From: an uncultured Alphaproteobacteria bacterium | Lineage (GTDB): Bacteria; Pseudomonadota; Alphaproteobacteria; HIMB59; GCA-002718135 | Direction: 5' to 3' | Length of the DNA stretch: 64,000 nucleotides | NCBI GenBank assembly: GCA_902582755.1 | Contig: CACHSZ010000002.1 | Coordinates: forward strand, 80,151-144,150 | Part shown: positions 17,949 through 40,231 of the stretch, piece by piece | Position numbering within the stretch: position 1 is the stretch's first letter | How the letters are laid out: every line of letters begins with the position of its first letter | Made by a program: the position numbers and the translations under genes | The notes under the pieces: generated by a model | Databases searched by the model: none | Told to the model about the DNA's origin: nothing | Seen by the model: the letters and a program-made list of their open reading frames with translations, nothing else

Positions 17949-17969
17949 AATTTATTTAAAAACACACTT

Positions 17970-20729: not shown

Positions 20730-20754
20730 GTCAAAGCTAAAACTTATTTTAAAG

Positions 20755-20782: not shown

Positions 20783-20821
20783 ACTATTCCATCTTTTACA
20801 ATTGATTTATAGAAACAAATT

Positions 20822-21973: not shown

Positions 21974-22084
21974 ATTTTACTAAGCTACTGATCAGTGCGA
22001 TAATTTTACTACCTAATTCCCAATATTTCTCCTTGTTTTACATACCTATTCTTGTTAGGAAAAAATTATTTATAGGAGGAATGC

Positions 22085-23050: not shown

Positions 23051-23059
23051 ATATCTTAA

Positions 23060-23091
23060 CCAGGCTCTTTAAATAGAGCCTGGTTTTTTTT
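23060..23091 (+). terminator. intra-operon hairpin/terminator between the binding-protein and permease genes
   Basis: CCAGGCTCT-ttaaat-AGAGCCTGG (9 bp) followed by 8 T. Confidence 0.75.
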
Positions 23092-23105
23092 AAAATAAAA
23101 AAAAT

Positions 23106-24086: not shown

Positions 24087-24088
24087 AG

Positions 24089-24826
24089 ATGGAAGATATA
24101 ATAGTTTGTGAGGGTTTAAACAAATACTATTCAGGAGTTCATGCTTTAAAAGATTTAAGCTTAAAGATAAAAAAAGACTCTGTTGTTGGTCTTATTGGAG
24201 ACAATGGTGCTGGTAAATCAACATTAATTAAAATTTTATCTGGAGCACATCAACCTGATTCAGGTCATATATATTTTGAAGGTAATAAGGTTAAATTTAA
24301 ATCTACAAAAGAAGCAATGAATTTAGGCATTGAAACAATTTATCAGTATTCAGCTTTGATCCCTGAAATGTCTATTGCAAGAAATATTTTTATTGGACGT
24401 GAACAAACTCAATATAATGTTGGCAATTTTGGTTTGATGAAAACTAAAACCATGCAGGACGATGCTATGAAAGCATTAACAGATGTAGAATTGCATCTTC
24501 GATCTCCAGATACACCAGTTAACCAATTATCTGGAGGGGAAAGACAAGGTGTTGTCATTGCAAGAGCAATGTATTTTAAATCAAAAGTTTTAATATTAGA
24601 CGAACCAACAAACCACCTATCAGTAAAAGAAACAAATAAAGTACTAAGGTTTGTAGAAGGATTAAAAAGCCAAGGCGTAACATCAATATTTATTACTCAC
24701 AACTTGAGTCATGTGTATCCAATTGCTGATCATTTATGTGTAATGGCAAGAGGTGAAAAAATTGCTGATTTGGATAAAAAGGATACAACAATAGATCATC
24801 TCACTGATTTATTAGTAAATGGATAA
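24089..24826 (+). CDS. ABC transporter ATP-binding protein (CUT2 type, single NBD)
   Basis: Walker A GDNGAGKST, signature LSGGERQ, Walker B LILDEPT. Confidence 0.9.
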   Translation: MEDIIVCEGLNKYYSGVHALKDLSLKIKKDSVVGLIGDNGAGKSTLIKILSGAHQPDSGHIYFEGNKVKFKSTKEAMNLGIETIYQYSALIPEMSIARNIFIGREQTQYNVGNFGLMKTKTMQDDAMKALTDVELHLRSPDTPVNQLSGGERQGVVIARAMYFKSKVLILDEPTNHLSVKETNKVLRFVEGLKSQGVTSIFITHNLSHVYPIADHLCVMARGEKIADLDKKDTTIDHLTDLLVNG

Positions 24827-24840
24827 TTTTGGGAGGAATT

Positions 24841-25776
24841 ATGATTAGTGATGCGCAAATAAAACAATATAACCAAGAAGGTTATACGATCGTTGAAAAT
24901 GTTTTTAGTATGGATGAGTTAAATCCAATATTAAATGAATTTGAAGAAATTGTTGATGATTTTGCAGAAAAAGCTTTTCAAGCTGGAAAAATTACAAACA
25001 AACATGATGATAAAGATGTTTTTAAAAGACTAGCTGCTCTCGAAAGAGATTTTAAAGGTTCTTCAGTTTTAATTCATCATAGAGGTGAATTAAAACCAGC
25101 ACTTGCTAACTTATGGGGATCAAAAAAACTTTTAGATATGGTTGAAAATTGGGTTGGCAAAGATATTTCTGGTCATCCAGTTTGGAATATTAGATCTAAA
25201 ACACCTCAGACAGCTAGGATGACAGTTCCATGGCACCAAGATTCTGCTTATTTAAAAGATGGAGCAGAAAAAACCACTCAGCCTGCTGCGTGGATTCCAT
25301 TTCTTGATGTAAATAAACATAATGGATGCATGCAAGTTGTTCCTGGGGGACATAGACCTGAAAGAGTTTTGAATCATAAATTAGAAAAGAAAGATGGTTC
25401 AGTAAAAGATTCTTGGTATTTATTTATTGAAGACAAAGATATTCCAGAGGAGAAAGTTGTTACTTGTGAAATGAAGGCTGGTTCAGTTTTATTTTTACAT
25501 CAATTAGTTCCTCATCGATCACTTGAAAATTTATCTGAGGATGTAAGATGGAGTGTTGACCTAAGATTTCAAAATCCAAAAGATGAAGCTGGTTTTCATA
25601 CTGGTTTGGTTGATCCAATCATAATGAGAAAATCAGAAGACCCAAGCTATACAGCTGATTGGGATTCTTGGTTTAAAGGTTATGAAGAAGAACACACTAA
25701 ATTTAGAGGGACTTCAAAAAAAGACCAATTTGACTCCACAGTTGATGGGTCATGGTTAGATCGTTGGGATAATTAA
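24841..25776 (+). CDS. PhyH-family Fe(II)/2-oxoglutarate dioxygenase
   Basis: YNQEGYTIVENVF N-terminus, HxD triad WHQDSAY, NGCMQVVPGGH, and distal His in LVPHRS. The track TTG start at 24829 is actually the GGGAGGA Shine-Dalgarno; the ATG is at 24841. Confidence 0.8.
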   Translation: MISDAQIKQYNQEGYTIVENVFSMDELNPILNEFEEIVDDFAEKAFQAGKITNKHDDKDVFKRLAALERDFKGSSVLIHHRGELKPALANLWGSKKLLDMVENWVGKDISGHPVWNIRSKTPQTARMTVPWHQDSAYLKDGAEKTTQPAAWIPFLDVNKHNGCMQVVPGGHRPERVLNHKLEKKDGSVKDSWYLFIEDKDIPEEKVVTCEMKAGSVLFLHQLVPHRSLENLSEDVRWSVDLRFQNPKDEAGFHTGLVDPIIMRKSEDPSYTADWDSWFKGYEEEHTKFRGTSKKDQFDSTVDGSWLDRWDN

Positions 25777-25790
25777 TTTAATTATCAAGC

Positions 25791-26774
25791 ATGGAAGTTA
25801 ATCTCGATGATTGGTACAGACCAGAAGTCGACAGAAAAAAATTAAAAACCTTAAGTAAAAGAAGAGATCTACCTGGACTAATCCATTTCTTTTTTTATTT
25901 TTTATCTTTATTTGCATCAGGTTATCTAGCGTACCTAACTTTAGGAACTTGGTGGACATATTTGTTCTTTTTTATTTACGGTACAATTTACGCTTTTAGT
26001 GTAGCGAACTGGCACGAAACTGTTCATCGAACTGCTTTTAAGACACGTTGGATAAATGAATTTTTTTATCACATCAGTTCTTTCATGTGTGATTTTGAAG
26101 GATTTAGATGGCGTTGGAGTCATACTTTTCATCACTCAAAAACAATGCAAACTGAAGATGATTATGACCACGAAATACAAGTCTCAAGACCAATAGAACT
26201 ACTTGCATTTTTCTTAAATTTTATTCCTTTAACAGATTTATTATATCCACATAAATTAATTAAATTCGAAGTCTTAAAACATGCGTTTGGAAAATTTACT
26301 CCAGTTATTGATATAACTGCTCCAAAAGAAGAAAAGAAAAAAATTCTTTGGAACTCAAGATTGTATGTCTTTATTTGGGTATTAGTAATTGTATACTCTT
26401 TTTACATAGGTTCTTTCTTACCAATAATTTATATTATTTTACCAACTTATATTGGGAAACCAATTTGGTTTGCAGTTAATGTAACTCAACATCTGGCAGC
26501 AAAAGTTGACACAAAGGATCATCGTCTCAGCACATATTCTGTGAGAATTAATCCAGTTCTAAGTTTCCTATATTGGCACATGGAATACCATTTAGAACAT
26601 CATATGTTTCCAATGGTACCATCATATAATTTGAAGAAATTAAGAAAAGAAATTGATAACGAGTTGCCGAAGCCATTCACCAGTCTCTATGATTTTTATA
26701 AAAAAGTTTTACCAGCAGTTATTGCCTTAGCAACTGATCAAAATAAATATTATAAAGTAAATTTAAATAACTAA
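25791..26774 (+). CDS. membrane fatty-acid-desaturase/hydroxylase-family di-iron protein
   Basis: Three His boxes, HETVH (Hx3H), HTFHH (Hx2HH) and HLEHH (Hx2HH), plus several TM helices. Confidence 0.8.
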   Translation: MEVNLDDWYRPEVDRKKLKTLSKRRDLPGLIHFFFYFLSLFASGYLAYLTLGTWWTYLFFFIYGTIYAFSVANWHETVHRTAFKTRWINEFFYHISSFMCDFEGFRWRWSHTFHHSKTMQTEDDYDHEIQVSRPIELLAFFLNFIPLTDLLYPHKLIKFEVLKHAFGKFTPVIDITAPKEEKKKILWNSRLYVFIWVLVIVYSFYIGSFLPIIYIILPTYIGKPIWFAVNVTQHLAAKVDTKDHRLSTYSVRINPVLSFLYWHMEYHLEHHMFPMVPSYNLKKLRKEIDNELPKPFTSLYDFYKKVLPAVIALATDQNKYYKVNLNN

Positions 26775-26776: not shown

Positions 26777-27202
26777 TTACCAGGAACCAGAATTCTCCAT
26801 TGATTTCCAAGGTTCTTGTTCTGGTAAAGATTCTCCTTCTTGTAAGATTTCAATAGAAATCCCATCAGGTGATCGCACAAATGCCATATGTCCATCACGA
26901 GGAGGTCTGTTAATTGTAACACCATTGTCCATTAATTTTTGACACACATCATAAATATTACTAACACTATAAGCTAGATGACCAAAGTTTCTGCCACCAG
27001 AATATTTTTCTGGATCCCAGTTATAGGTTAATTCTAATAAACCAGTTTTTTCATCACTATTTTCAGCAGCTAAAAAAATTAGTGTAAATTTTCCTTTTTC
27101 GTTTTCAATTCTTCTAACTTCTTTTAGACCAAGTTTATTACAATAAAAATCAAGTGAAGCATCGACATTTTCAACCCTAACCATTGTGTGTAAATATTTC
27201 AT
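26777..27202 (-). CDS. gloA: lactoylglutathione lyase (glyoxalase I)
   Basis: HTMVRVENVDASLDFY N-terminus, ELTYNW and GHLAY. VOC-fold size (141 aa). Confidence 0.88.
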   Translation of the reverse strand: MKYLHTMVRVENVDASLDFYCNKLGLKEVRRIENEKGKFTLIFLAAENSDEKTGLLELTYNWDPEKYSGGRNFGHLAYSVSNIYDVCQKLMDNGVTINRPPRDGHMAFVRSPDGISIEILQEGESLPEQEPWKSMENSGSW

Positions 27203-27422
27203 TGAGAATAATTAACACTATAAATTATTTTTTTTCAATTATTATTTTATTTAAAAAATCCGAAAAAATTAATTTTAATAATTAATTCATTGATGAGTAT
27301 TAAAAAATGTAATTATTGCCAATAAATATCATTATTTTAAAAAATTTTAGATCTTAAAAATATTGTATAAATTTCTATATCCGCTAGATTAAATTCATTA
27401 TTTAAACATATTGGGAGGAAAA

Positions 27423-28718
27423 ATGAATATTTTAAATTTTGTAATTAAGAAAATTTACCTAATTACTTTATCTTTTTTTCTATCATTTGGTTTTATATCA
27501 AGCAGCTATGCGATTGATATAACGATTTGGGATTTAAGTGGTAGAAATGGTCAGGATGAATTTTATGATAATCTTAACAAGGAATACAAAAAAATTAATC
27601 CTGATGTAAATATAATTTTACAAACATTTGAAAATGAAGCTTACAAAACTCAAATTCAAGTAGCCTTAAATGGTAATGATGGACCGGATGTATTTTTTAA
27701 CTGGTTTGGAGAAGATAGTGCTCGTTTAGCAAGAGCGGGATTAGCATTAGATATCACTCCTTACGCAAATGTTGAGGGTGGCTACGGTAATTACATAAGT
27801 GAAGGATTATCAAATACAACAGCTGTTAATGGTAAAATATATGGAGTTCCAAATACTTCAGTATCAAAATATTTTCACTATGACCCTGCTTTTTTTGAAG
27901 CAAATAGTTTGGAAGTTCCAAAAACATTTGATGATTTATTAAATCTTTGTAAAGACATCAGAGCAATTGATTCCTCAATTGTTCCATGGCCTCTAGGAAA
28001 CTCAGAAAGATGGAAGCTTAATCACGTTATAACTATGTTAAACCAAAGAGTTGTAGGTGAAGAAAATACTGCGGCAGATTATAACTTATCTGCATCAGAA
28101 GATGAGTTATTTACTAACCCAGCGTATGTTGAGGCTTGGCAAAAAGTTGTAGATCTGCAAGATGCAGGTTGTTTCCAAGATGCTCCAAACGCTACACATC
28201 CAGATCTAACAAGATCAATGTTTGCATCACAAATTTCACCAATGATTTATTGTGGTACATGGTGTGGAGGTATCTTTAATGGTGAAGGTTTTTCTGACTT
28301 TAGCTATTTTAGATTCCCAGAAGTAGTTGGTGGTGCTGGTGCAGCAACTGTAGGTTTCTTAGTTCCATCAGGTATGATGGTATCAGCAAAAACACCTCAT
28401 CCAGAAATTGCAGCACATGTTGCCTCGTTTATGGTTTCAGATGATATGGCATTGCAAGCAGCTGAACTAATGGGTTTCATGCCTTCTAATCCAACAAAAA
28501 TTGGCGAAATGAGTAATCCAACTCATTGGTTTAATTTTTATGTTAATGATATTGCAGACAAAACAGGTCATGTAAATGTTTTGGATGTTTTATTAGAAGC
28601 TAATGTTTCAAATGCTTATCTTGATATGGGTACTGAAATTCTAAATAGAACGAAGACTCCACAAGAAGCTATGGATTTTATTAGGCAGGTTGCTTTAGAA
28701 GCTAAAGCAGCGATGTAA
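27423..28718 (+). CDS. ABC transporter extracellular solute-binding protein, family 1 (CUT1 sugar type)
   Basis: Signal-peptide-like N-terminus ending SSSYA. About 430 aa, the size and composition of MalE/UgpB-type binding proteins. The track TTG at 27411 lies in the GGGAGGA Shine-Dalgarno; the ATG is at 27423. Confidence 0.85.
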   Translation: MNILNFVIKKIYLITLSFFLSFGFISSSYAIDITIWDLSGRNGQDEFYDNLNKEYKKINPDVNIILQTFENEAYKTQIQVALNGNDGPDVFFNWFGEDSARLARAGLALDITPYANVEGGYGNYISEGLSNTTAVNGKIYGVPNTSVSKYFHYDPAFFEANSLEVPKTFDDLLNLCKDIRAIDSSIVPWPLGNSERWKLNHVITMLNQRVVGEENTAADYNLSASEDELFTNPAYVEAWQKVVDLQDAGCFQDAPNATHPDLTRSMFASQISPMIYCGTWCGGIFNGEGFSDFSYFRFPEVVGGAGAATVGFLVPSGMMVSAKTPHPEIAAHVASFMVSDDMALQAAELMGFMPSNPTKIGEMSNPTHWFNFYVNDIADKTGHVNVLDVLLEANVSNAYLDMGTEILNRTKTPQEAMDFIRQVALEAKAAM

Positions 28719-28728
28719 ATATTTTATT

Positions 28729-28762
28729 AATTTCGGCTATTTCTTAATAGCCGAAATTTTTT
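28729..28762 (+). terminator. intra-operon hairpin/terminator after the binding-protein gene
   Basis: 13-bp stem AATTTCGGCTATT / AATAGCCGAAATT with loop tctt, running into a T-rich tract that ends at the permease ATG. Confidence 0.7.
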
Positions 28763-29668
28763 ATGAACAAAAATAATACACAAACAAATATTTTTTCTTT
28801 GTCAAATGACAAAGTATCAGCCACTATACTTCTTGTACCGGCTTTAATATTTTGTACGATTTTTATCTTTATTCCTGCCATTGGTACAATTGTAGGATCA
28901 TTTTATAGCTACAGCCTTACCTCAATGAACAATTGGAAATGGGTTGGCTTTGGGAATTACGTTCAAGCAACGCAGGATGAATATTTTTGGGTAGCGTTGA
29001 AAAATAACTTTATAATAGTTTTTGCTTCTATTGTTCTTCAGGTAGGTGTTGGAACAATTTTAGCAGCAATTCTTGATCGAGGAATAAAATATGGAAGGGT
29101 AATTTTTCGAACCATAATATTTACTCCAATGGTCATATCATCAGTTGCAGTGAGTTTAATTTGGTTAATAATCTATGACCCAAATGTTGGTATATTAAAT
29201 GCTATCTTTAAATCTATTGGTTTATCAACACCGTCTAAGGGGTGGTTAGGAGATCCTAATATTTCAATTTGGATGATAATGATAACAGCTGCATGGCAAA
29301 ATACAGGGTTTATGATGGTCTTAATTCTTGCTGGTCTGCAAGGAGTTTCTAAAGAGGTGTATGATGCAGCTGAAATAGATGGTGCAACTGGAGTTAAAGC
29401 TTTTTGGTATATTACGCTTCCAATGATTAGAAATGTTTTGATTGTTGCAATTTTGATAACAACCATAGGGGCATTTAAAGTTTTTGAATTTATTTTTGTA
29501 TTTACTCAAGGAGGGCCATCCAATGCAACTCAAGTTTTAGGTACTTACATTTATTTACAAGCATTCAATTTGCTACATATGGGATATGCTAATGCATTAT
29601 CCGTAATACTTCTTTTAATCGCATTATTTTTGGGATGGTTACAACTTAAATCCAGCAGGAAAGCTTAA
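28763..29668 (+). CDS. ABC sugar transporter permease (MalF/UgpA type)
   Basis: Six TM segments. EAA-loop region EVYDAAEIDGATGVKAFWYITLP. Confidence 0.88.
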   Translation: MNKNNTQTNIFSLSNDKVSATILLVPALIFCTIFIFIPAIGTIVGSFYSYSLTSMNNWKWVGFGNYVQATQDEYFWVALKNNFIIVFASIVLQVGVGTILAAILDRGIKYGRVIFRTIIFTPMVISSVAVSLIWLIIYDPNVGILNAIFKSIGLSTPSKGWLGDPNISIWMIMITAAWQNTGFMMVLILAGLQGVSKEVYDAAEIDGATGVKAFWYITLPMIRNVLIVAILITTIGAFKVFEFIFVFTQGGPSNATQVLGTYIYLQAFNLLHMGYANALSVILLLIALFLGWLQLKSSRKA

Positions 29669-30486
29669 TGAGTAGATTTAAAATAGCAAACATAATAGCT
29701 TATGGTTTTGTAACACTGTTTAGTATTTATGTTTTAATGCCAATTTTAGTAATGGTATTAACAACATTTAAATCTAAAAGAGAAATTTTTTTAGAACCTT
29801 TAGGATTGCCTGGTCAATTTGGCTTATCTTCATTTGAAAGAGCTCTAACTGTAGGGCTTGGCAGTTTCATGTTAAATTCTTTTATTGTATCTTTTTTTGC
29901 TGTTTTTTTAATTGTTACCATTTCAGGAATGGCAGCGTATGTACTATCAAGAATTGATTTTAAAATTAATAAATATGTTTATTTACTAATAGTAGCAGGT
30001 TTTGCAATTCCACCTGCTGCAGTGCTTGTTCCTTTATATACGATGGTTTCAAACTTAAATTTATTAAACAGTTTATTTGGGGTTATCATGCCTCTAACTG
30101 CATTTGGTATTCCTTTTACTGTTATACTTTTTTATGCTTTCTTTTTAGACTTTCCAAAAGAAGTAGAAGAGGCAGCTACTATTGATGGTTGTACAAAACT
30201 TCAAATTTTTTTTAGAATTATTGTACCTCTTTCTGGACCAGTCATTGCAAGTGCTGCAATCTTCCAAACTGTTTGGATTTGGAATGAATTTTTATTAGCA
30301 TTAATAATGCTAACTTCAGACGACTTCAAAACTTTGCCTATAGGTCTTTTAAAACTAAGAGGAGAGTGGGCATCTGATTGGGGGGCGATTATGGCAGGAC
30401 TTACAATAGCCGTAATTCCTGTGTTAATAGTATTCCTAATATTCCAAAAGTATTTTGTTAGATCATTGGCAGGGTTAGGAAAATAG
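29668..30486 (+). CDS. ABC sugar transporter permease (MalG/UgpE type)
   Basis: EAA loop EVEEAATIDGCTKLQIFFRIIVP. TAATG overlap with the preceding permease. Confidence 0.88.
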   Translation: MSRFKIANIIAYGFVTLFSIYVLMPILVMVLTTFKSKREIFLEPLGLPGQFGLSSFERALTVGLGSFMLNSFIVSFFAVFLIVTISGMAAYVLSRIDFKINKYVYLLIVAGFAIPPAAVLVPLYTMVSNLNLLNSLFGVIMPLTAFGIPFTVILFYAFFLDFPKEVEEAATIDGCTKLQIFFRIIVPLSGPVIASAAIFQTVWIWNEFLLALIMLTSDDFKTLPIGLLKLRGEWASDWGAIMAGLTIAVIPVLIVFLIFQKYFVRSLAGLGK

Positions 30487-30500: not shown

Positions 30501-30779
30501 ATGGCAAAAAGACAAAAGGTTTTAGTTCTCTATTTAAAGTTTCCTAGTTTAGAGGCTGAAGTCATTTCTTGGGCTACTTTTGATGGTACAGGAAAAAAAC
30601 TACATATGACTGGTGATAGTGATGAGCCCCCTTATCCAACAGGTCTTGATGCACTATTAGATGGTTGGAGATTATTTCAATCGAGCCAAGCTATTCCAGA
30701 ATATCCAGGTCAAGAATTTAGAACATCATATTTAAAACATGAGTTCTTTTTTGAAAAATTAGAAGAAGGAGATTTTTAG
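30501..30779 (+). CDS. hypothetical 92-aa protein
   Basis: ORF packed between the permease (14-nt gap) and the dioxygenase (1-nt gap). Non-repetitive, mixed composition. No domain recognised. Confidence 0.5.
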   Translation: MAKRQKVLVLYLKFPSLEAEVISWATFDGTGKKLHMTGDSDEPPYPTGLDALLDGWRLFQSSQAIPEYPGQEFRTSYLKHEFFFEKLEEGDF

Positions 30780-30780: not shown

Positions 30781-31701
30781 ATGCCAAAATTATTAACTAC
30801 AGAACAAATGGCAGAATTTGCCAGCAGTGGATGTCTATTTTTTGAGGAACTAATTGATGAACAAACTAATAAAGAATTTTTAGACGATATTGGTCATACC
30901 AGTGTAGAAAATGTTGAGAGTGTTCAAACATATTTTGATAATATAAAGTCAACTAGCAGCATTCCAAGAATACCAGCTGGAACTCCACTTAAAGACTCGT
31001 ATCCTAAGAATTCACCTCTTGAAAAAATTTTAAAAAATGAGGTTGTAGATGGAGCAATAAAAAGCTTAGTTGGATCTAATCCACTTGTAGATCACCAGGC
31101 TCTTCATTTAACTTTTCCAACTAAATATTTCAAAGGAGCCAATCAAAGACAAATGTCTCAACAAAATCATCAGGATAGCACTATTGATCCAAGATCTACA
31201 TTTGACATTCAGGTTTTCTATTTTCCAACCGAGGTAACAAAAGAAATGGGAGGTACAAGATATCATCCTGGAACTCATTTACGAGTTGTTAATGAGTTTG
31301 GTATTGCAAAATATCAGAATATTAAAGGCCAAAAGAGTATTGTTTGTAAACCAGGCACAGTTGGAATATTTCATAACGGATTGTGGCATGGCGCAGGTGT
31401 GAATTTCTCTGAAGAAATTAGATATATGTTTAAAGTAAGGTTACAACCAACAGAGAAACAAGAATTATTATGGGATCCAGAAAAAAAATATCAGCCCTTA
31501 CCAAATAGAGCACTTTATTGGTCTGATGAAGTTAAGGAAGTAACCATCAATGATATTTTAATGAGGTCCTATCCTTGGCAAGAAGCAGATACAAATAGAC
31601 TTGATAAAATAAATGTTGTCAAGTTTTGGAGGTTATTAACTGGTCACAAGAAAATGGATGTTGACTATTGGCTTACAAGAATTGAAAACGAATTATATTA
31701 A
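30781..31701 (+). CDS. PhyH-like Fe(II)/2-oxoglutarate dioxygenase (divergent)
   Basis: LTTEQMAEFASSGCLFF N-terminus, HxD in NHQDSTID, GGTRYHPGTH, and distal His in GLWHGAGVN. Confidence 0.7.
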   Translation: MPKLLTTEQMAEFASSGCLFFEELIDEQTNKEFLDDIGHTSVENVESVQTYFDNIKSTSSIPRIPAGTPLKDSYPKNSPLEKILKNEVVDGAIKSLVGSNPLVDHQALHLTFPTKYFKGANQRQMSQQNHQDSTIDPRSTFDIQVFYFPTEVTKEMGGTRYHPGTHLRVVNEFGIAKYQNIKGQKSIVCKPGTVGIFHNGLWHGAGVNFSEEIRYMFKVRLQPTEKQELLWDPEKKYQPLPNRALYWSDEVKEVTINDILMRSYPWQEADTNRLDKINVVKFWRLLTGHKKMDVDYWLTRIENELY

Positions 31702-33206
31702 TTGAAATTTCTTTCATCACCTTTAAATGGAACAACATCACATGTTTCTTGGTACCATGAAAGCATTTTTTCTTTTAAGTTTTTAAGCTCTAATGCATAT
31801 TGTGGATCGTCAATAACATTATTAATTTCTCCAGGATCTTCAATTAAATTATAAAGTTCATCTTTTTCGTAAGCTCTTTTTATATATTTAAATTTTTTAT
31901 TTCTGCACATTGTTGCTTTGGTGTGCATTAAAATTTCATCCTCTTTACTTTGTAAGTTTACTCTTGGAAAATATAAGCCATGGGGTAAATTTAAACTTTG
32001 ACTTTCATTTGCTTGTCTCTCTAATCTAAGCCTGCCACCTTCTGTAAATACTTCTTCTCTATGATTATCAGTTTTCTGTTCTATAAAATTTTTAATACTT
32101 TTGCCAAAATGCCAATATGAAGGATTGATATTACTGTAATCATATATTGTCCCAGCAATATCAATTAATTCTATCATTGTGTCACTTATACCATTTAATG
32201 TATTTTTACTTTTTGGTGGTTTAATTACAAGAGGTACATTCGTAAGACAATCCTGAAAAGTATTTTGTGTTTTTTCCACCAAATTGTAATCACCTGTAAA
32301 GTCACCATGATCAGATAAAAAAATTATTAAAGTATCGTCATACAAATTACTTTCTTTAAGTTGATTGACTAAAAGTCCAAATTGATAGTCTACTCTTGAA
32401 CACATACCAAGATATACCGCTCGCAATTCATTCCAACGTTCATCAGTCCAATCTTGCATTCTTTGTCCATCCATTATTCCTTTTAAAAGACTTGGCTTGT
32501 CCTCCCATGTTTTGTATTGATATCTGTTAGGTATCAAATTTCTATCAATTGAAGAGAACCATGGATCCTCAACACAGTAAGGGGGATGCGGATAACCAAG
32601 TGGTAGAAATAAACAGAATGGTTTTTCTTTTTTATAATCTTTTATGAAATCTAATGCTCCATAAACCATGGACCAATCATCATCAAAATAAATATCCTTA
32701 TCTTTTTTATCTAATTTTCCTTTAAAGAAACTATAATAATTATCTCCATCTTTAGGCCCTCTCCATGATAGATCTCCACCATGTGTACCTGGTTGTTGAG
32801 TGTAATTCCATTTTTTAAAATCTCTATCAGTTGGTTCAAAATAAATATCACAATGATTACGATATCCTTCCTGACCTGCTATTAAATCATTTTTTCCACC
32901 CCACCAAATAAAGAAATCATCATCTTTTAGCTCTGATAAAATACTAGAGTCACCCTGATCTGTATGTAACATATAATGCATTGTTCTATGACCATGAACA
33001 TGTGGATACCATCCAGTCATAAATGAACAACGACTTGGTGTACAAACTGTTGCTTGGCAAAAAGCATTCTTAAATGCAATTGCATCTTCTTTAATAATAT
33101 TATCTAAATTAGGAGTTTTTGCACCTGGATATTCTAGATATCCGAGCATATCTCCTCTCCACTGATCGGGGTTAAAAATAACAATATTCGGTTTTTTCTG
33201 GTTCAT
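31698..33206 (-). CDS. Cys-type sulfatase (S1 / alkaline-phosphatase superfamily), no signal peptide
   Basis: Formylglycine motif CTPSRCSFMTGWYP. Metal ligands are present in NPDQWRGD and LSDHGDF. The catalytic fold starts at about residue 6 (PNIVIFNPDQ). Confidence 0.88.
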   Translation of the reverse strand: MNQKKPNIVIFNPDQWRGDMLGYLEYPGAKTPNLDNIIKEDAIAFKNAFCQATVCTPSRCSFMTGWYPHVHGHRTMHYMLHTDQGDSSILSELKDDDFFIWWGGKNDLIAGQEGYRNHCDIYFEPTDRDFKKWNYTQQPGTHGGDLSWRGPKDGDNYYSFFKGKLDKKDKDIYFDDDWSMVYGALDFIKDYKKEKPFCLFLPLGYPHPPYCVEDPWFSSIDRNLIPNRYQYKTWEDKPSLLKGIMDGQRMQDWTDERWNELRAVYLGMCSRVDYQFGLLVNQLKESNLYDDTLIIFLSDHGDFTGDYNLVEKTQNTFQDCLTNVPLVIKPPKSKNTLNGISDTMIELIDIAGTIYDYSNINPSYWHFGKSIKNFIEQKTDNHREEVFTEGGRLRLERQANESQSLNLPHGLYFPRVNLQSKEDEILMHTKATMCRNKKFKYIKRAYEKDELYNLIEDPGEINNVIDDPQYALELKNLKEKMLSWYQETCDVVPFKGDERNFN

Positions 33207-33286
33207 GTATCCCTAAAATTCAGTTGACAATTTACCAGAAAAATTCATGTTAAAACAATAATATTAACAAATTTCTGGGAGGAAAA

Positions 33287-34537
33287 ATGAGATTAATAAA
33301 ATTATTTTTAAGTGTCATTTTTTTGTTAGGGATATCATTTAACGCCAATGCAGTAACAATCAAATGGCTTGGATTGGCACAAGATGACTCTGCGCATAAA
33401 GAAGACATTGATGCAGCAATTGCTGATTGGGAAGCAAAAACTGGCCATGAAGTTAAGTGGCAGTATATGGCTGGTCCAGACTTAAAACTAAAATTACCTA
33501 CAATGTTGCAAAGTGACGATGCTCCACATTTATTTTACAGTTGGGGTGGAGGAGTTATGTTTGATCAAGCTGATGCTGGATTTTTACAAGACATTTCTGC
33601 TTTAGTTCCAGATAGTTATTTAGAAAATTTAAGTCCTGCAGCAGCAGATGCTTTTACATACAAAGGTGAAAGAGTTGGTCTGCCAAATTTATTTAACCAA
33701 GTAGTATTTTGGTACAACAAAGATTTAACTGAAAAAGCAGGAGTTGATCCTTCAAAGGTTGTTATGTGGAACGATCTTCTAGAAGTAGTAAAAGATATAA
33801 AAGATGCTGGCATAACACCAATTTGTGTTGGTGGTAAAAATAAATGGCCTATTCATTTCTATTGGACACTACTCCATGTAAGAAATGGAGGCAAGGCAGC
33901 TTTCTTTGACGCTTTAGAAAATGGCGGATGGGATAGAGAAGAATACATTAAATCTGGATATGAATTCCAACAGCTTGTTGACCTTGAGCCTTTTCAAGAT
34001 GGTTTTATGGCAGTTGAATATGGTGATGCTTCAGCAGCATTTGGTAATGGAGAGTGTGCTCTTCACCTAATGGGAAGTTGGGATTACAATGGTGCTAAAA
34101 GAAGAAGTACTTCTGGGGAAGGAATTCCTGATGATAGAATGGGAACATTCCAATTTCCTATGACTGAAAATGGAAAAGGAAATCCTTCAGATACACTTGG
34201 TGGAATTAATGGATGGTTAGTTTCTAAAAATGCACCAAAAGAAGCAGTCGATTTCTTAATGCATTATATCTCAATGAAATATCAATCAATGGGAGCAAAA
34301 AGTGGAGCGTATATGCCTATTTATAAAGGAGCTGAAACAGAAATGGGTAACAGATTCTTTAAACAGCAAGCGCTTAATGTTGCAAACTCAACCTTCCATT
34401 CTATTTTCTGGGATCAATATCTTGGAAGAGATATTGGTGAGGTTGTAAACGATGTTTCAGTTGAACTAGCAACTAAAGACATCACTCCAGAAGAAGCTTG
34501 TCAAAGAGTACAAGAGGCTTGGGAGTTTAATCAATAA
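33287..34537 (+). CDS. ABC transporter extracellular solute-binding protein, family 1 (CUT1 sugar type)
   Basis: Signal peptide MRLIKLFLSVIFLLGISFNANA. 416 aa. GGGAGGA Shine-Dalgarno upstream. Confidence 0.85.
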   Translation: MRLIKLFLSVIFLLGISFNANAVTIKWLGLAQDDSAHKEDIDAAIADWEAKTGHEVKWQYMAGPDLKLKLPTMLQSDDAPHLFYSWGGGVMFDQADAGFLQDISALVPDSYLENLSPAAADAFTYKGERVGLPNLFNQVVFWYNKDLTEKAGVDPSKVVMWNDLLEVVKDIKDAGITPICVGGKNKWPIHFYWTLLHVRNGGKAAFFDALENGGWDREEYIKSGYEFQQLVDLEPFQDGFMAVEYGDASAAFGNGECALHLMGSWDYNGAKRRSTSGEGIPDDRMGTFQFPMTENGKGNPSDTLGGINGWLVSKNAPKEAVDFLMHYISMKYQSMGAKSGAYMPIYKGAETEMGNRFFKQQALNVANSTFHSIFWDQYLGRDIGEVVNDVSVELATKDITPEEACQRVQEAWEFNQ

Positions 34538-34546
34538 ATATCAATT

Positions 34547-34572
34547 AGAGGGGCAAATAATTTTGCCCCTCT
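34547..34572 (+). terminator. GC-rich hairpin after the binding-protein gene (attenuator or mRNA stabiliser; T-run displaced)
   Basis: 11-bp stem AGAGGGGCAAA-taat-TTTGCCCCTCT. The nearest T-run starts about 12 nt downstream, so it is not a textbook terminator. Confidence 0.5.
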
Positions 34573-34594
34573 CTATAAAAGTTATTTTTTTTGA

Positions 34595-35491
34595 ATGATA
34601 AAGAAAAACATCACATCTGCATTTGTTGAAAAATATTCCACAATAATCATTTTTTTAGTTCCAGCATTAACTTTATTTACTGTTTTTGTTGTTATGCCAA
34701 TTTTTGAAGCAGCTTATTTTAGTTTCTATCGGTGGAATGGAATGGGACCACCAGAAAAATATGTTGGATTTAAAAATTATGCTTTTTTATTTAAAAACGG
34801 AATTTTTTTAAATGCTCTGAAAAATAATTTTTGGATTATTTTTGTCTCACTCTTTATCCAATTACCCTTTGCGTTATTTCTAGCTCTTTTTTTAGCAAAT
34901 AATTTTAGGGGAGCAGCTATATTTAGAAGTTTATTTTTCTTACCATATATTTTAGCTGAAATTGTTGCCAGTTTGATTTGGGTTTATATTTACAAAGGAG
35001 ATTATGGATTAGTTGGTGCAATTTGGGGTTTGTTTGGAGCTGATGCGCCTTGGATTACTGCAGATAAAGAGTGGGCATTGACAGCTATACTAATAGTTGT
35101 CGTTTGGAAATATTTTGGAATACATATGATGATTATGATTTCAGGTCTTCAAGGTATATCTAAAGAAGTAATTGAAGCTGCAAAAATTGATGGTGCTGGA
35201 CCAGTAACAACTGCTTTAAGAATAAAAATTCCGATTTTGTGGCCAACAATTACTCTATCTATATTTCTTTCAACGCTCGGAAGTTTACAGCTATTTGATT
35301 TAATTATGCCTTTAACAATGGGAGGTCCATCAAATGTTACTCACTCAATGGTTACTTATTTGTACGATTTTGGTGTTGGAAGAATGAGACTTGGTTTTGG
35401 AAGTGCCATTAGTGTGGTAATTTTTATAATATGTTTTGTTGTTGCTTTAATTTATCAAACAACAATTTTAAAAGATAAAGGATATAACTAA
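34595..35491 (+). CDS. ABC sugar transporter permease (MalF/UgpA type)
   Basis: EAA loop EVIEAAKIDGAGPVTTALRIKIP. Six TM segments. Confidence 0.88.
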   Translation: MIKKNITSAFVEKYSTIIIFLVPALTLFTVFVVMPIFEAAYFSFYRWNGMGPPEKYVGFKNYAFLFKNGIFLNALKNNFWIIFVSLFIQLPFALFLALFLANNFRGAAIFRSLFFLPYILAEIVASLIWVYIYKGDYGLVGAIWGLFGADAPWITADKEWALTAILIVVVWKYFGIHMMIMISGLQGISKEVIEAAKIDGAGPVTTALRIKIPILWPTITLSIFLSTLGSLQLFDLIMPLTMGGPSNVTHSMVTYLYDFGVGRMRLGFGSAISVVIFIICFVVALIYQTTILKDKGYN

Positions 35492-36315
35492 TGCAATCAA
35501 AATTATCAAAATTTTATATGTATCTTTTCTTAACTTTCTTAGCAGGAATAATTTTAGTACCTTTATACTTAACTTTTATAAGTAGCTTTAAAACTTTAGG
35601 TGATTTAAGTTCTAATGTTATTGGATTGCCAAGAGAGTGGATTTTATCAAATTATACAGATGTTTTTGGTATGGAATATTTTTGGTCATTTGCCTGGAAT
35701 TCACTTGTATACGGAGTCTTAACAACAGTGTTAACTTTAATTTGTGCATCTATGGCAGCATTCGTATTCGCTCATATTAGATTTTTTGGAAATAGATTTT
35801 TATTTAATTATTTGTTGATTGGGTTAATGTTCCCTTTTGCCTCTGCAATCATTCCTTTATTTCTAAAGGTAAGAGATTTTGGATTACTTGGAACTTATTG
35901 GGCAGTAGTTTTACCTCAAATTGCATTTGGTCTTGGTTTTGCTATTTTACTTTTTAGAGGTTTTTTCAAACAAATACCACCAGAATTATTTGATGCCGCA
36001 TACGTTGATGGTTGTAATTATTCAAATTTCTTTTTCCGAATAACTATCCCGCTATCTGTTCCAATTTTCTCTACTGTAGCAGTTGTAACTTTTGTAACAA
36101 GCTGGAATAATTATCTACTTCCATTAATTATGGTTAGTAATGAGGAGTTATACCCTTGGCCTATGGGTATAATGTTTTTTAGAGGTGAGTATGACACAGA
36201 TTGGTCAATGGTTCTAACTTACGTTTCTTTAACATTGATACCTGCAATAGTATTTTTTCTTTTAGCTCAAAAATACATCATTGCTGGACTTACTGGTGGA
36301 GCAGTAAAAGAGTAA
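35491..36315 (+). CDS. ABC sugar transporter permease (MalG/UgpE type)
   Basis: EAA loop ELFDAAYVDGCNYSNFFFRITIP. TAATG overlap upstream. Confidence 0.88.
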   Translation: MQSKLSKFYMYLFLTFLAGIILVPLYLTFISSFKTLGDLSSNVIGLPREWILSNYTDVFGMEYFWSFAWNSLVYGVLTTVLTLICASMAAFVFAHIRFFGNRFLFNYLLIGLMFPFASAIIPLFLKVRDFGLLGTYWAVVLPQIAFGLGFAILLFRGFFKQIPPELFDAAYVDGCNYSNFFFRITIPLSVPIFSTVAVVTFVTSWNNYLLPLIMVSNEELYPWPMGIMFFRGEYDTDWSMVLTYVSLTLIPAIVFFLLAQKYIIAGLTGGAVKE

Positions 36316-37028
36316 TGCTGAAAGAAAATGAAGTAAAATTCTATAATCAAAATGGTTATTTAATTTTAAAGGATAAATTGGACAAGGAGACATTGTCAGA
36401 CTTAAAAAATTCAACGACTCAACTGATAGAAGAATTTAAAAAAAACCAATCAACTTTTATAAGAGATAAAAATAGAAATATATCTAAGCATGGTAAAATG
36501 TTTTTATCTAATCGTTGTGAAGATTTTCCTTTGATGGAAAAATTCACTAAGGGTAATTTTGTTAAATCTATTTGTAGGTCAATATTAGGTGAAAAAATTT
36601 ACTTATTTAATGAACAAGTAGTAAATAAGGAGCCACAAACTGAAAGTAAATTTGCGTGGCATCAAGATTCTGGTTATGTAGGACATGATCATAAGGTATA
36701 TCTATCTATTTGGATTGCTTTATGTGATACAAATGAAAATAATGGAGCATTAAGAATATTGCCAATAAATCTAGAAAGAGAAGCTAAGATTGAAGAACAT
36801 GTTTGGTCCGAACAATCATCAGATTTAAGTATGAAAGTTCAGGAAGAGAAGTCAATTTCGTGTACAATTGAGGAAGGTGGATTAGTCTTATTTTCGAGTA
36901 GAACACCTCATGCTTCTTTTCCAAATAAATCAAACAAAAACAGACCAGCATATTTATGTCAGTACTCATCTGAGCCAATTATACCTCCGCCCGGTTCAAA
37001 TAAAAAATTTAGAGCAGAGTTAATTTAA
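36315..37028 (+). CDS. PhyH-family Fe(II)/2-oxoglutarate dioxygenase
   Basis: FYNQNGYLILKD N-terminus, HxD in WHQDSGYV, and distal His in TPHASFPN. The start is at ATG 36315 (TAATG overlap); the track start 36201 lies inside the permease gene. Confidence 0.8.
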   Translation: MLKENEVKFYNQNGYLILKDKLDKETLSDLKNSTTQLIEEFKKNQSTFIRDKNRNISKHGKMFLSNRCEDFPLMEKFTKGNFVKSICRSILGEKIYLFNEQVVNKEPQTESKFAWHQDSGYVGHDHKVYLSIWIALCDTNENNGALRILPINLEREAKIEEHVWSEQSSDLSMKVQEEKSISCTIEEGGLVLFSSRTPHASFPNKSNKNRPAYLCQYSSEPIIPPPGSNKKFRAELI

Positions 37029-38170
37029 TGAAAGTTGGAATTATAGGATGTGGAAATATAGCAGATATATATTTTAAAAATTCTCAAAAATATTTTAATA
37101 ATTTTGACATCATTGCATGTGCAGATATTAAAGAAGATGCATCTGTTCATTATTCCAAACTTTATGGAGTTGAAAATTTATCAGTGGATAAATTATTAAA
37201 TCATAGTGAAATAGAATTAATTATTAATTTAACAATTCCTGACGTCCACTTTGAAGTTTCGCAATCAATTCTTCAAGCTGGAAAGCATTCATACTCTGAA
37301 AAACCTCTTTCAATTGAATTTAACCACGGAAAGCAATTGTTAGATTTATCGAAAGAGAAAAATTTGTATTTAGGTTGTGCGCCTGATACATTTCTGGGAG
37401 CAGGTATTCAAGAATCAAAGAAAATTCTAGAAAATAACATAATTGGAAATATTAATATGGGAAGTATTGCAATGGGCGTTGCGGGTCACGAAATATGGCA
37501 TCCTAATCCAGACTTTTACTATAAGTATGGTGGAGGACCAGTATTGGATATGGGCCCATACTATTTTACAGCATTAGTCAATTTATTAGGTCCTGCAAAA
37601 TCTGTCTATTCTCAATCTAGAACAGTTTATAAAAAAAGAATTATTGGAAGTGGTAGCAGAAAAGACGAAGAAGTAATTGTAGATATTCCAACTACTCTAG
37701 TTTCTCAAATTGAGTTTCAAAATGGAGCGCTTATAGATTCTTTTTTCTCTTTTGATACATGGAAGCATAATAAAAACCATATTGAACTTTATGGAGATAA
37801 GGGTTCAATAAATATTCCAGATCCCAATACTTTTGGCGGCTTAATAAATGTTTGCACATCAAAAAATGGAGAATGGGAAACTATAGAAACTGATAAAAAT
37901 AATTTAGGAAAGATCAATATCCACAATAGTAAAAAAACAAATGAAAATCCTGGAATTGCCAATTACAGAGGAATTGGTGTTAGTGAGATGGTTGATTCTA
38001 TAAATAACAAAAGACTAAACAGGTGCAGTGGTGAATTAAGTTTACATGTTTTAGATATATTAGATACAATTATTAAATCTTCTGAAAAGGATAAAAAATT
38101 ACAATTAAGAAGTTCTATTAATGAAGTTAGTTACTTTGCTGAGGGTGAAATAAGTAAATTATTAAATTGA
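37028..38170 (+). CDS. Gfo/Idh/MocA-family oxidoreductase (ThuB-like by context)
   Basis: GIIGCGNIA Rossmann motif and SEKP motif. Paralog of 20822-21973. Directly followed by a ThuA-like gene. Confidence 0.85.
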   Translation: MKVGIIGCGNIADIYFKNSQKYFNNFDIIACADIKEDASVHYSKLYGVENLSVDKLLNHSEIELIINLTIPDVHFEVSQSILQAGKHSYSEKPLSIEFNHGKQLLDLSKEKNLYLGCAPDTFLGAGIQESKKILENNIIGNINMGSIAMGVAGHEIWHPNPDFYYKYGGGPVLDMGPYYFTALVNLLGPAKSVYSQSRTVYKKRIIGSGSRKDEEVIVDIPTTLVSQIEFQNGALIDSFFSFDTWKHNKNHIELYGDKGSINIPDPNTFGGLINVCTSKNGEWETIETDKNNLGKINIHNSKKTNENPGIANYRGIGVSEMVDSINNKRLNRCSGELSLHVLDILDTIIKSSEKDKKLQLRSSINEVSYFAEGEISKLLN

Positions 38171-38180: not shown

Positions 38181-38894
38181 ATGAAAAAAGCTTTAATAGT
38201 TTATGGAGGTTGGCCAGGACATGAGCCAGAGAAATGTACTGAAATAATTAAAGGCATGCTGGAACCTGAAGGATATGAGGTAAGAGCAGAATATCAAACT
38301 TCTGCATTTGCAGAAGATTATGTTCACGAAATGGATTTGCTTATACCTATAGTGACTATGGCCTTTCATTTTGATCCAAGAGGAGAAATAAAAAAAACCG
38401 CTGTTAACAATGTTATTAAAGCTGTTCATAATGGATGCGGTCTTGCTGGTCATCACGGTGGAATGTGTGATGCATTTAGACAATCAATTGATTGGCAGTT
38501 TTTAACAGGAGGTCAATGGGTAAGTCACCCAAATGGTATTCATGATTATAAAGTAAATATAACAAAAAAAGATGATCCAATCATGGAAGGTATTGAAGAT
38601 TTTGATTATCATTCAGAGCAATATTACATGCATGTGGATCCATTAAATGAAGTTTTAGCAACGACGACATTTAAAGGTAACGAAGTTTGGAAGCTTGAAC
38701 AAGAACCTGGTTCATCAAGTGGTGACGCATATACAACAGAATGGTTAAAAGGTGTAGAAATGCCAGTTGCTTGGAAAAGACGAATTGGGAAAGGTAAAAT
38801 TTTTTATATCTCTCTTGGTCATTTTGCACATGAATTAAACCATCCACAAATGAATAAAATTTATAAACGTGGTTTACTTTGGGCATCAAGATAG
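38181..38894 (+). CDS. ThuA-like (trehalose-utilisation domain) protein
   Basis: ALIVYGGWPGHEP N-terminus, HHGG, WVSHP, and C-terminal GKGKIFYISLGH typical of the ThuA domain. Confidence 0.8.
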   Translation: MKKALIVYGGWPGHEPEKCTEIIKGMLEPEGYEVRAEYQTSAFAEDYVHEMDLLIPIVTMAFHFDPRGEIKKTAVNNVIKAVHNGCGLAGHHGGMCDAFRQSIDWQFLTGGQWVSHPNGIHDYKVNITKKDDPIMEGIEDFDYHSEQYYMHVDPLNEVLATTTFKGNEVWKLEQEPGSSSGDAYTTEWLKGVEMPVAWKRRIGKGKIFYISLGHFAHELNHPQMNKIYKRGLLWASR

Positions 38895-38917: not shown

Positions 38918-40231
38918 ATGACAGAATACTTTAGTAAAATACCAGAGATTAAATTTGAAGGCGAAGAAAGCACAAATCCATTTGCTTTTAAATTTTACGA
39001 TGAAAATAAAAAAGTTTTAGGCAAGTCTATGAAAGAGCATTTAAGGTTTGCTACTTGTTATTGGCATACATTTACTTGGCCTGGCCTTGATCCATTTGGT
39101 GGTCAAACATTTGATAGACCGTGGATGCAAGCAGGTGATGAAATGAAAATGGCTGAAATGAAACTTGATGCTGCATTTGATTTTTTCACTAAAATAAAAA
39201 CACCCTTTTTCTGCTTTCACGATAGAGACATTTCTCCTGAAGGTTCGAATTATGCTCAGACACAAAAAAATTTCTTTCATATTATAGACATAATGGAACA
39301 AAAAATTAATGAATCAGGAATGAAATTACTTTGGGGAACAGCAAATGCTTTTTCTCATAAAAGATATATGAGTGGAGCTTCGACTAATCCAGACCCAGAA
39401 GTTTTTGCATATAAAGCTGCACAAGTAAAAGATTGTATGGATGCAACGATGAGATTGGGTGGTCAAAACTACGTTCTTTGGGGTGGAAGAGAAGGATACG
39501 AAACAATTCTTAATACTGATATGACTAAGGAAACAGCTAATCTTCAAAGATTTTTAGAATTAGTTGTTAATTATAAACACAAGATAGGATTTAAAGGTCA
39601 AATTTTATTGGAACCAAAACCTCATGAACCAACTAAACATCAATATGATTTTGACTCTGCCACTTGCTTAGCGTTTTTACGAAAGGCAGGTTTAGAAAAT
39701 GAGATTAAATTAAATGTTGAAGTTAATCATGCAACTTTATCTGGTCATAATTTTGAACATGAAATTGCTTATGCAACTTCAAACAGTGCCTTAGGAAGTA
39801 TTGATATTAATAGGGGTGATACTTTAATAGGTTGGGATACGGATCAATTCCCAAATAATCCTGCAGACTTAATTATGTCATTTTATTTTATTTTTAAGAA
39901 TGGCGGCTTAGGTCAAGGAGGCATGAACTTTGATGCAAAAATAAGAAGACAATCTATTGATGCTGAAGATTTATTTCATGCTCACATTGGGGGTATGGAT
40001 GTATGTGCAAAAACACTTATTGCTGTTGAAAAATTAATGAATGATAATGTTATTCCTAAGTTTATTGAAGATAGATATGAAGACTGGGATAAAAATTTGG
40101 GTCAGTTTATTCATAATAAAGATACTGGATTAGATGATATAAATAAAAAAGTAATCGATGATAATATTGAACCAGAACCTCGTTCAGGAAGACAAGAATA
40201 TCTGGAAAACATCTTAAATAAATATTTGTAG
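38918..40231 (+). CDS. xylA: xylose isomerase (class II)
   Basis: 437 aa. FEGEESTNPFAFKFYD N-terminus, FCFHDRD, LWGGREGY, LLEPKPHEPTKHQYDFD, VNHATLSGH. Confidence 0.92.
   Translation: MTEYFSKIPEIKFEGEESTNPFAFKFYDENKKVLGKSMKEHLRFATCYWHTFTWPGLDPFGGQTFDRPWMQAGDEMKMAEMKLDAAFDFFTKIKTPFFCFHDRDISPEGSNYAQTQKNFFHIIDIMEQKINESGMKLLWGTANAFSHKRYMSGASTNPDPEVFAYKAAQVKDCMDATMRLGGQNYVLWGGREGYETILNTDMTKETANLQRFLELVVNYKHKIGFKGQILLEPKPHEPTKHQYDFDSATCLAFLRKAGLENEIKLNVEVNHATLSGHNFEHEIAYATSNSALGSIDINRGDTLIGWDTDQFPNNPADLIMSFYFIFKNGGLGQGGMNFDAKIRRQSIDAEDLFHAHIGGMDVCAKTLIAVEKLMNDNVIPKFIEDRYEDWDKNLGQFIHNKDTGLDDINKKVIDDNIEPEPRSGRQEYLENILNKYL

Follow-up and report, generated by a model that had tools for sequence, protein, structure and literature searches.

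What does a sulfatase without an export signal do in a streamlined marine genome, and on what does it act? The question is raised by a 64,000-nucleotide stretch of contig CACHSZ010000002.1 (assembly GCA_902582755.1, an uncultured alphaproteobacterium), hereafter the window, in which a 502-aa Cys-type S1 sulfatase is encoded between two CUT1 sugar importers. The reading that we favor, with a probability of roughly 0.6, is that of a cytoplasmic formylglycine-dependent (S1) sulfatase that would act on a small sulfated carbohydrate after its import and yield carbon. Beyond an initial annotation of the locus, we describe a five-sulfatase island in SAR11 bacteria, a xylo-oligosaccharide-type importer next door, and a conserved module that pairs a 92-aa protein (p92) with a PhyH-like dioxygenase.

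The sulfatase gene is real, intact, and devoid of an export signal, and is not a chance match. Its start codon is ATG, and the in-frame codons before it read TAG-GGA-TAC-ATG; because of this TAG three codons upstream, the reading frame cannot extend N-terminally. The first 30 residues (MNQKKPNIVIFNPDQWRGDMLGYLEYPGAK; N terminus MNQKKPNIVIFNPDQWRGD) are polar and hold no hydrophobic core, twin arginine, or lipobox, and the protein lacks the signal peptide or lipobox by which exported sulfatases of polysaccharide utilization loci (PULs) are recognized. The Pfam match to PF00884 covers residues 6 to 358 (E 3.5e-32, 112.4 bits; cut-off, 25 bits) and is followed on the C-terminal side by a match to SGSH_C (Pfam); in the AlphaFold model, the first strand spans residues 7 to 13. 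Along with PF00884 above threshold, the protein displays the C/S-x-P/A-x-R motif and the metal-ligand residues expected of S1 sulfatases. The nucleophile motif, CTPSRCSFMTGWYP, contains C55-T-P-S-R59, with C55 as the formylglycine precursor, and the metal ligands are D14/Q15 within NPDQ and D299/H300 within LSDHGD. K105, H207, and K312, all invariant or almost invariant, are candidates, by position only, for sulfate binding and leaving-group protonation, and the model is of low confidence around the active site. The initial annotation had described a 502-aa frame with the full S1 signature and a fold beginning near residue 6 that leaves no room for a leader, and our re-reading agrees on each count. 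An upstream in-frame start encoding a signal peptide, which would have overturned that view, is excluded by the TAG, and the homologues start at the same point.

The protein belongs to a large family. Searches returned >4700 homologues at E <= 1e-10, and the nearest 90%-identity cluster alone has 1976 member sequences, from metagenomes. We aligned 25 homologues from six or more lineages (SAR11, Gammaproteobacteria, Lentisphaerae, Chloroflexota, Asgard archaea, and others), which are 55-60% identical to the window sulfatase, all about 500 aa long, and all start at the catalytic fold. D14, Q15, C55, T56, P57, S58, R59, H207, D299, H300, and K312 are invariant among them and K105 nearly so, and a family-specific invariant stretch, H69-x2-G72-H73-R74-T75-M76, follows the nucleophile motif. 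A scan of cluster representatives found 377 clusters at E <= 1e-30, and full-length relatives with identities as low as about 30% mostly align from their own residues 1 to 5; leaderlessness is therefore a trait of a large clade and not an accident of annotation. With 89-95% identity within SAR11 (33 of 34 genomes) and 55-60% across phyla, the sulfatase appears to be under strong purifying selection.

Outside SAR11, we rejected the idea of a shared neighborhood for the orthologues, as contexts vary by lineage. The Gammaproteobacteria show at least three types of neighborhood: one with an enoyl-CoA hydratase (ECH), an alpha/beta hydrolase, a double CoA-transferase, and a PNPOx-like protein; one with a PhyH-HEAT protein, a carboxylesterase, an HpcH aldolase, and a TonB-dependent receptor; and one with an inositol-monophosphatase-family protein, a short-chain dehydrogenase/reductase (SDR), and an acyl-CoA dehydrogenase. 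At six of the gammaproteobacterial loci (L052, L053, L055, L056, L058, and L064), a 530- to 650-aa fusion of a PhyH-like domain with HEAT repeats precedes the sulfatase orthologue; the fusion protein of L064 is 25% identical over 233 aa (E 3e-13) to the PhyH-like protein of the window. At five others (L047-L049, L057, and L060), an inositol-monophosphatase/CysQ-family gene lies directly upstream of the orthologue, with the SDR and acyl-CoA dehydrogenase genes downstream.

We compared the sulfatase with characterized enzymes by sequence and by fold. Its best sequence matches in the PDB are 4uph, 4upi, 2vqr, 4upl, and 2w8s (E 1e-31 to 5e-26), which belong to the group of phosphonate monoester hydrolases (PMHs) and dimeric arylsulfatases. 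The exo-2S-iota-carrageenan sulfatase 6pt4 ranks with these matches (E 8e-30, aligned over residues 4 to 361), and choline sulfatases rank with them or just behind. The AlphaFold model (mean predicted local distance difference test [pLDDT] score, 73.6; predicted template-modeling [TM] score, 0.82) yielded matches in the same order in Foldseek, at TM 0.63-0.70 and 19-24% identity, headed by the PMHs 2vqr, 2w8s, 4uph, and 4upk. In the alignments, D14/Q15 and D299/H300 coincide with the DQ and DH pairs of 4uph and 4upi, and the predicted ligand set resembles that of the group formed by the Mn-dependent PMHs, dimeric arylsulfatases, and choline sulfatases. For that neighborhood, Mn is either proven or likely as the metal (PMC5870055, PMC12421950). 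Scores against NCBIfam models were 162.1 bits for arylsulfatase PRK13759 (cut-off 481), 161.2 for PehA NF045661, the second-best match (cut-off 900), 133 for choline-sulfatase TIGR03417 (cut-off 433.45), and 90.3 for Mn-dependent arylsulfatase NF052527 (cut-off 850). The bet genes that form the usual context of choline sulfatases are absent from the open reading frames (ORFs) of the window. In SulfAtlas, the PMHs form S1_0, treated as an outgroup, and choline sulfatase falls in S1_12 (PMC5066984); the nearest characterized proteins are S1_0 PMHs, S1_12 members, and one unclassified S1 protein. Taken together, these comparisons suggest an S1-type enzyme of an uncharacterized subfamily, near the cytoplasmic PMH/arylsulfatase/choline-sulfatase region of the tree.

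The host is a member of the Pelagibacteraceae (SAR11), as judged from the CoxA, IleS, and XylA products of the window, which match proteins named Pelagibacteraceae; the GC content of the window is 30.7%. A sulfatase had been thought unusual for a SAR11-like oligotroph, and a survey of related genomes had been proposed. Ours, a scan with one genome per species, does not bear that expectation out: the gene is no oddity of a single genome, since it occupies one and the same site in at least 34 species-level SAR11 genomes, which usually have four more sulfatases. In all 34 loci it lies upstream of GFO-ThuA-xylose isomerase-ribF-ileS. The orthologues are 89-95% identical to the window sulfatase at 33 of the 34 loci and 81% identical at the remaining one (L031), and this is the only sulfatase found in every locus. 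Five leaderless Cys-type sulfatases occur in 23 of the 34 loci, against one in the window, and all SAR11 loci with enough flanking sequence have at least two. The four extra proteins (503, 455, 499, and 513 aa; L002-L033, e.g., L011:12707-18687) match PF00884, each with a CxPxR or CxAxR motif, and begin directly with the fold; in the sister loci a third CUT1 importer follows them. By tblastn, no trace of the four was found in the window. The window is thus a reduced form of a variable multi-sulfatase SAR11 island, of which the focal gene is the constant, retained member. A 686-aa putative glycoside hydrolase of the GHL6 family lies inside the island in two SAR11 genomes (L005:15956-18016 and L009) and is the only glycosidase candidate in any island variant that we saw. 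Recent horizontal transfer of the island was considered and rejected, as the GC content of island genes (0.30-0.37) matches that of core genes.

The literature that we searched contained no paper describing this sulfatase locus, and a recent SAR11 isolate-genome paper makes no mention of sulfatases. One SAR11 pangenome study noted two sulfatases beside a tripartite ATP-independent periplasmic transporter.

The genes around the sulfatase (Table 1) bear on its substrate. As the initial annotation stated, the sulfatase is divergent from a CUT1 binding-protein gene across an 80-nt spacer. That solute-binding protein, SBP2, has a full-length match (E 2.8e-96, 326 bits) to PDB 8XBA, which is XylC, the binding protein of a beta-1,3-xylooligosaccharide ATP-binding cassette (ABC) transporter from Vibrio sp. 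EA2 (PMC12125979). The best PDB matches of SBP1, from the second importer, are 4g68 (E 1.6e-33), 8xba (E 5e-24), and 3zkk, named as a xylo-oligosaccharide binding protein (E 2.4e-22). We take 4g68 to be a xylo-oligosaccharide binder as well. The GFO oxidoreductase, ThuA, and xylose isomerase genes are kept in every sister SAR11 locus. Going by these sequence matches, the importers and xylose isomerase point to xylose-based or similar sugars. The two CUT1 systems (27411-30486 and 33287-36315) presumably share an ATPase encoded elsewhere.

Table 1. Features of the sulfatase locus (window positions)
Feature	Position	Strand	Basis or remark
Solute-binding protein SBP1, second CUT1 importer	27411-28718	plus	Pfam
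Permeases of the SBP1 system	28763-29668 and 29668-30486	plus	Pfam
p92, 92-aa protein	30501-30779	plus	ORF; pairs with PhyH-family gene
PhyH-like Fe(II)/2-oxoglutarate dioxygenase, 306 aa, HxD...H triad	30781-31701	plus	PF05721, E 2.7e-11
Leaderless Cys-type S1 sulfatase, 502 aa	31698-33206	minus	ORF, in-frame upstream TAG, PF00884 and SGSH_C, homologue alignment, fold match
Divergent intergenic spacer, sulfatase/SBP2 operon, 80 nt	33207-33286		Presumed to hold both promoters
CUT1 solute-binding protein SBP2, signal peptide	33287-34537	plus	PF01547/PF13416
ABC permeases of the SBP2 system, two	34595-35491 and 35491-36315	plus	ORFs; synteny with sister loci (perm1/perm2); BPD_transp_1 on L083 orthologues
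Canonical PhyH-family Fe(II)/2-oxoglutarate dioxygenase	36315-37028	plus	PF05721, E 1.1e-26, on ORF listed from 36201
GFO/IDH/MocA oxidoreductase	37028-38170	plus	Pfam
ThuA-like protein	38181-38894	plus	Pfam
Xylose isomerase	38918-40231	plus	Name from protein match

Some further features of the surroundings can be recorded. For the canonical PhyH gene downstream of the SBP2 system, the ORF finder placed the start at a TTG at 36201, overlapping the permease gene by 115 nt; judging from the encoded sequence MLKENEVKF and the Pfam match, translation more likely begins at the ATG of position 36315, which overlaps the stop of the permease gene. The GFO gene overlaps the PhyH stop by 1 nt, and the operon is hence tightly coupled. 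This PhyH gene is one of three of its family within 12 kb (24829-25776, 30781-31701, and 36315-37028), near which are also a fatty-acid desaturase gene (25791-26774) and a glyoxalase-family gene (26777-27202). Upstream of the island, positions 15046 to 24826 hold a block resembling inositol or sugar catabolism; by N-terminal sequences only, it comprises an IolD-like 614-aa ORF, a GFO-family-like ORF (20822), and two CUT2-type ABC systems, and it also includes a 2-hydroxyacid dehydrogenase gene (16920-17948; Pfam).

How might such an enzyme earn its place? We infer its catalytic activity, metal, carbohydrate substrate, link to the importer, and C55 maturation, and they would fit together as follows. 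One of the two neighboring CUT1 ABC importers would bring in a small sulfated carbohydrate through the inner membrane, and the sulfatase, staying in the cytoplasm, would remove the sulfate ester by means of the hydrated formylglycine derived from C55, with a divalent metal held by D14/Q15/D299/H300. C55 would be matured by an enzyme encoded at another place in the genome or by some system yet to be identified. The desulfated sugar would then enter central metabolism, plausibly via the GFO oxidoreductase, ThuA, and xylose isomerase. The pay-off would be carbon and not sulfur: SAR11 bacteria are not known to carry out assimilatory sulfate reduction, and sulfate is abundant in seawater, so sulfur scavenging is unlikely. 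The four more sulfatases, the third CUT1 system, and sometimes GHL6 in sister loci fit a scheme in which sugars sulfated several times or in different ways are desulfated step by step inside the cell. Bifidobacterium breve provides a precedent for taking up a sugar sulfate and desulfating it intracellularly (PMC7326374). The proposal that the protein acts in the cytoplasm on an imported small sulfate ester had been made in the initial annotation; the leaderless start and the flanking importers uphold its setting, and the substrate is what we infer. To name sulfated xylose or a xylo-oligosaccharide as that substrate is only a guess.

It is also important to set out what weighs against an imported carbohydrate sulfate as the substrate. 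The SBP2 system is missing from some sister loci that keep the sulfatase. The window contains no glycoside hydrolase, xylosidase included, and no ABC ATPase gene for either CUT1 system, and a maturase was identified neither in the window nor within 10 kb of the sulfatase in the 34 SAR11 loci. The sulfatase misses all curated NCBIfam subfamily cut-offs by wide margins, and the nearest structures are those of promiscuous PMHs and arylsulfatases whose own natural substrates are unknown. The pLDDT of the model falls below 50 for residues 52 to 80, around the active-site loop. The gammaproteobacterial neighborhoods are not made up of sugar genes, and the substrate of the family may not be a carbohydrate.

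This last point lies at the heart of an alternative in which the enzyme is a cytoplasmic sulfatase for a non-carbohydrate ester (a sulfated lipid, isoprenoid, sterol, or aromatic compound, or choline-O-sulfate) and its adjacency to importers in SAR11 reflects coincidental island packing. The enoyl-CoA hydratases, family III CoA-transferases, acyl-CoA dehydrogenases, SDRs, carboxylesterases, and PhyH-family oxygenases around gammaproteobacterial orthologues speak for it, as do the cytochrome P450s, ECH, and CoA-transferases found with p92-PhyH elsewhere, and identity of 55-60% across phyla suggests one conserved small substrate. Nevertheless, sulfatases are packed with CUT1 sugar importers in Streptomyces as well as in SAR11, the choline-sulfatase score (133 versus 433 bits) and the lack of bet genes nearby argue against choline-O-sulfate, and no lipid-catabolic genes flank the sulfatase in the window; we regard this alternative as unlikely, though it deserves real weight. 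Slimmer still are the chances of a phosphonate-monoester/phosphodiester hydrolase, or a promiscuous hydrolase, like RlPMH or BcPMH, used for intracellular phosphorus scavenging from organophosphorus esters. SAR11 bacteria in oligotrophic gyres live under phosphorus stress, PMHs are the top fold matches (2vqr, 2w8s, 4uph, and 4upk) and stand among the top sequence matches, the D-Q/D-H pattern of metal ligands is held in common, and PehA is the second-best NCBIfam match. Yet that match reaches 161 bits against a cut-off of 900, identity to PMHs (20-24%) is about the same as that to arylsulfatases, choline sulfatase, and carrageenan sulfatase, and no pst, phn, or pho genes turned up in the window or sister loci, where the neighbors are sugar importers and sugar enzymes. 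Five island paralogues also fit varied positions of sulfate better than phosphorus scavenging. The possibility raised earlier, that the protein groups with phosphonate or phosphodiester hydrolases, is thus not borne out: the PMHs are only 19-24% identical, and arylsulfatases and the choline and carrageenan sulfatases score similarly.

With one sulfatase in the window, as opposed to five in 23 of the 34 sister loci, and no maturase in the window, one might also picture a decaying remnant, in which four of five sulfatases have been lost, the maturase is lacking, and the remaining protein is unmodified and inactive. We find this scarcely credible. The ORF is intact with all catalytic residues kept, identity to 33 of the 34 orthologues is 89-95% (81% for L031), this is the one sulfatase present in every locus, its GC content is typical of the genome, and its 90%-identity cluster has 1976 metagenome member sequences. 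We return, then, to the favored reading of an active cytoplasmic sulfatase for an imported sulfated carbohydrate, and to the question of how its C55 would be modified.

Cys-type sulfatases gain formylglycine from a formylglycine-generating enzyme (FGE) or a radical S-adenosylmethionine (radical-SAM) maturase (anaerobic sulfatase-maturating enzyme [anSME]), and the initial annotation had reported neither in the 64-kb window. Our searches corroborate this. All window ORFs of at least 70 aa were scanned for motifs and 35 proteins were also compared with Pfam, the remaining ORFs being covered by motif only; no ORF contained a C-x3-C-x2-C radical-SAM motif or an FGE-type RGGS[WFY] or GFR motif, and none of the 35 proteins matched PF03781 or PF04055. 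Neither enzyme is encoded within 10 kb in the 34 SAR11 loci. A radical-SAM/SPASM gene 8 kb from a Lentisphaerae orthologue is the only such case seen near an orthologue. Our literature search found nothing relevant joining SAR11 or Pelagibacter with formylglycine, FGE, or SUMF, and nothing on formylglycine in cytoplasmic sulfatases. The absence from the window stands, while the puzzle that had been read into it becomes smaller: Cys-type sulfatases and PMHs gain formylglycine in the Escherichia coli cytoplasm through an unidentified endogenous enzyme, with no known FGE (PMC5870055), and because of this a missing neighboring maturase is not anomalous.

Next to the sulfatase lies the p92-PhyH pair. 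The PhyH-like gene starts 1 nt after the end of the p92 gene and is convergent with the sulfatase gene, the two stop codons overlapping in plus-strand TTAA at 31698-31701, exactly as first described. The PhyH-like protein has a weak match to the SptF dioxygenase, and its homologue search gave only close SAR11 relatives among the matches listed. For p92, neither Pfam nor NCBIfam gave a match, and no PDB structure matched its fold; it has 581 homologues, with 63-70% identity in Streptomyces, Actinorhabdospora, and Deltaproteobacteria. The pair stands beside the sulfatase in 28 of the 34 SAR11 loci, in most of which it follows the 503-aa sulfatase without a gap. In eight contexts outside the window (among loci L081-L090), p92 always adjoins a PF05721 gene encoding 260 to 310 aa. 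Sulfatases are near the pair at the two loci examined from another Pelagibacteraceae lineage; in Streptomyces (also two loci examined) a cluster comprises a CUT1 ABC system, two sulfatases, AraC, PhyH, and p89. In five of the eight contexts no sulfatase lies within 8 kb, and P450s, ECH, CoA-transferases, or GH20 are found there.

An obligate partnership between p92-PhyH and sulfatases was accordingly downgraded, as five of eight outside contexts are sulfatase-free and four informative SAR11 loci have sulfatases without the pair. The pattern suggests instead that the pair is an oxygenase of two components in its own right, which joined sulfatase clusters on more than one occasion. Translationally coupled and conserved across phyla, p92-PhyH looks like an undescribed two-component Fe(II)/2-oxoglutarate oxygenase. 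Its translational coupling to the sulfatase in most SAR11 loci and its clustering with sulfatases in Streptomyces make it a candidate for a third bacterial formylglycine system, on which SAR11 with one to five cytoplasmic Cys-type sulfatases would rely if their genomes have neither FGE nor anSME; this reading is a very long shot. Such a system may hydroxylate the Cys beta-carbon, with subsequent loss of H2S. Alternatively, the pair could be an AtsK-like oxidative desulfating enzyme. If it is true that the genome, of ~1.3 Mb, has neither FGE nor anSME, it would offer a small search space for the Cys-to-formylglycine system inferred from E. coli.

SAR11, the most abundant heterotroph in surface seawater, is commonly regarded as living on simple, unsubstituted compounds of low molecular weight. 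Its conserved locus, which combines between one and five cytoplasmic sulfatases with importers of the xylo-oligosaccharide type, suggests that it also takes up sulfated sugars freed by polysaccharide degraders or algae. If true, this would add a route for the turnover of sulfated organic carbon. The clade itself is large, highly conserved, and uncharacterized across many phyla, and finding its substrate would annotate thousands of genes.

Comparison with known systems places this sulfatase among several familiar ones. PUL carbohydrate sulfatases are exported, acting at the cell surface or in the periplasm. With such enzymes (PsS1_NC, 6PT4; Bacteroides S1_11 and S1_46) the window sulfatase has the S1 fold and catalytic residues in common; it differs from them in that it lacks a leader and has neither a SusC/D nor a TonB partner in the window. 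The choline-O-sulfatase BetC (S1_12; 6FNY and 6G5Z) is located in the cytoplasm and, like the window sulfatase as we picture it, is a Cys-type S1 enzyme of similar size that has related ligands and acts on a small sulfate ester taken up by the cell; BetC prefers Mn. Counting residues from the nucleophile Cys, and not by alignment, the H69-M76 stretch falls approximately where choline sulfatase has Asn75. Unlike BetC, the window sulfatase stays below the TIGR03417 cut-off (133 against 433 bits), has no betA, betB, or betI nearby, and matches the BetC fold at TM 0.57-0.63.

The GlcNAc-6-sulfate sulfatase cluster of B. breve UCC2003 carries its own anaerobic radical-SAM maturase, whereas none lies near the SAR11 sulfatase (within 10 kb). 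What the two would share is the strategy of importing a sulfated monosaccharide freed by others and desulfating it inside the cell (PMC7326374). From the PMH/dimeric-arylsulfatase group (RlPMH, 2VQR; BcPMH, 2W8S; Agrobacterium radiobacter PMH, 4UPH; SpAS1, 4UPI; SpAS2, 4UPL), the window sulfatase is set apart by 19-24% identity, TM 0.63-0.70, its score below the PehA cut-off, its H69-M76 stretch, and its sugar-import context. The group nonetheless has Cys-x-Pro-x-Arg, the Asp-Gln/Asp-His ligands, a length of about 500 aa, and a C-terminal SGSH_C-like region in common with it, and the likeness extends to maturation, as these enzymes acquire formylglycine in the bacterial cytoplasm without a dedicated neighboring maturase (PMC5870055).

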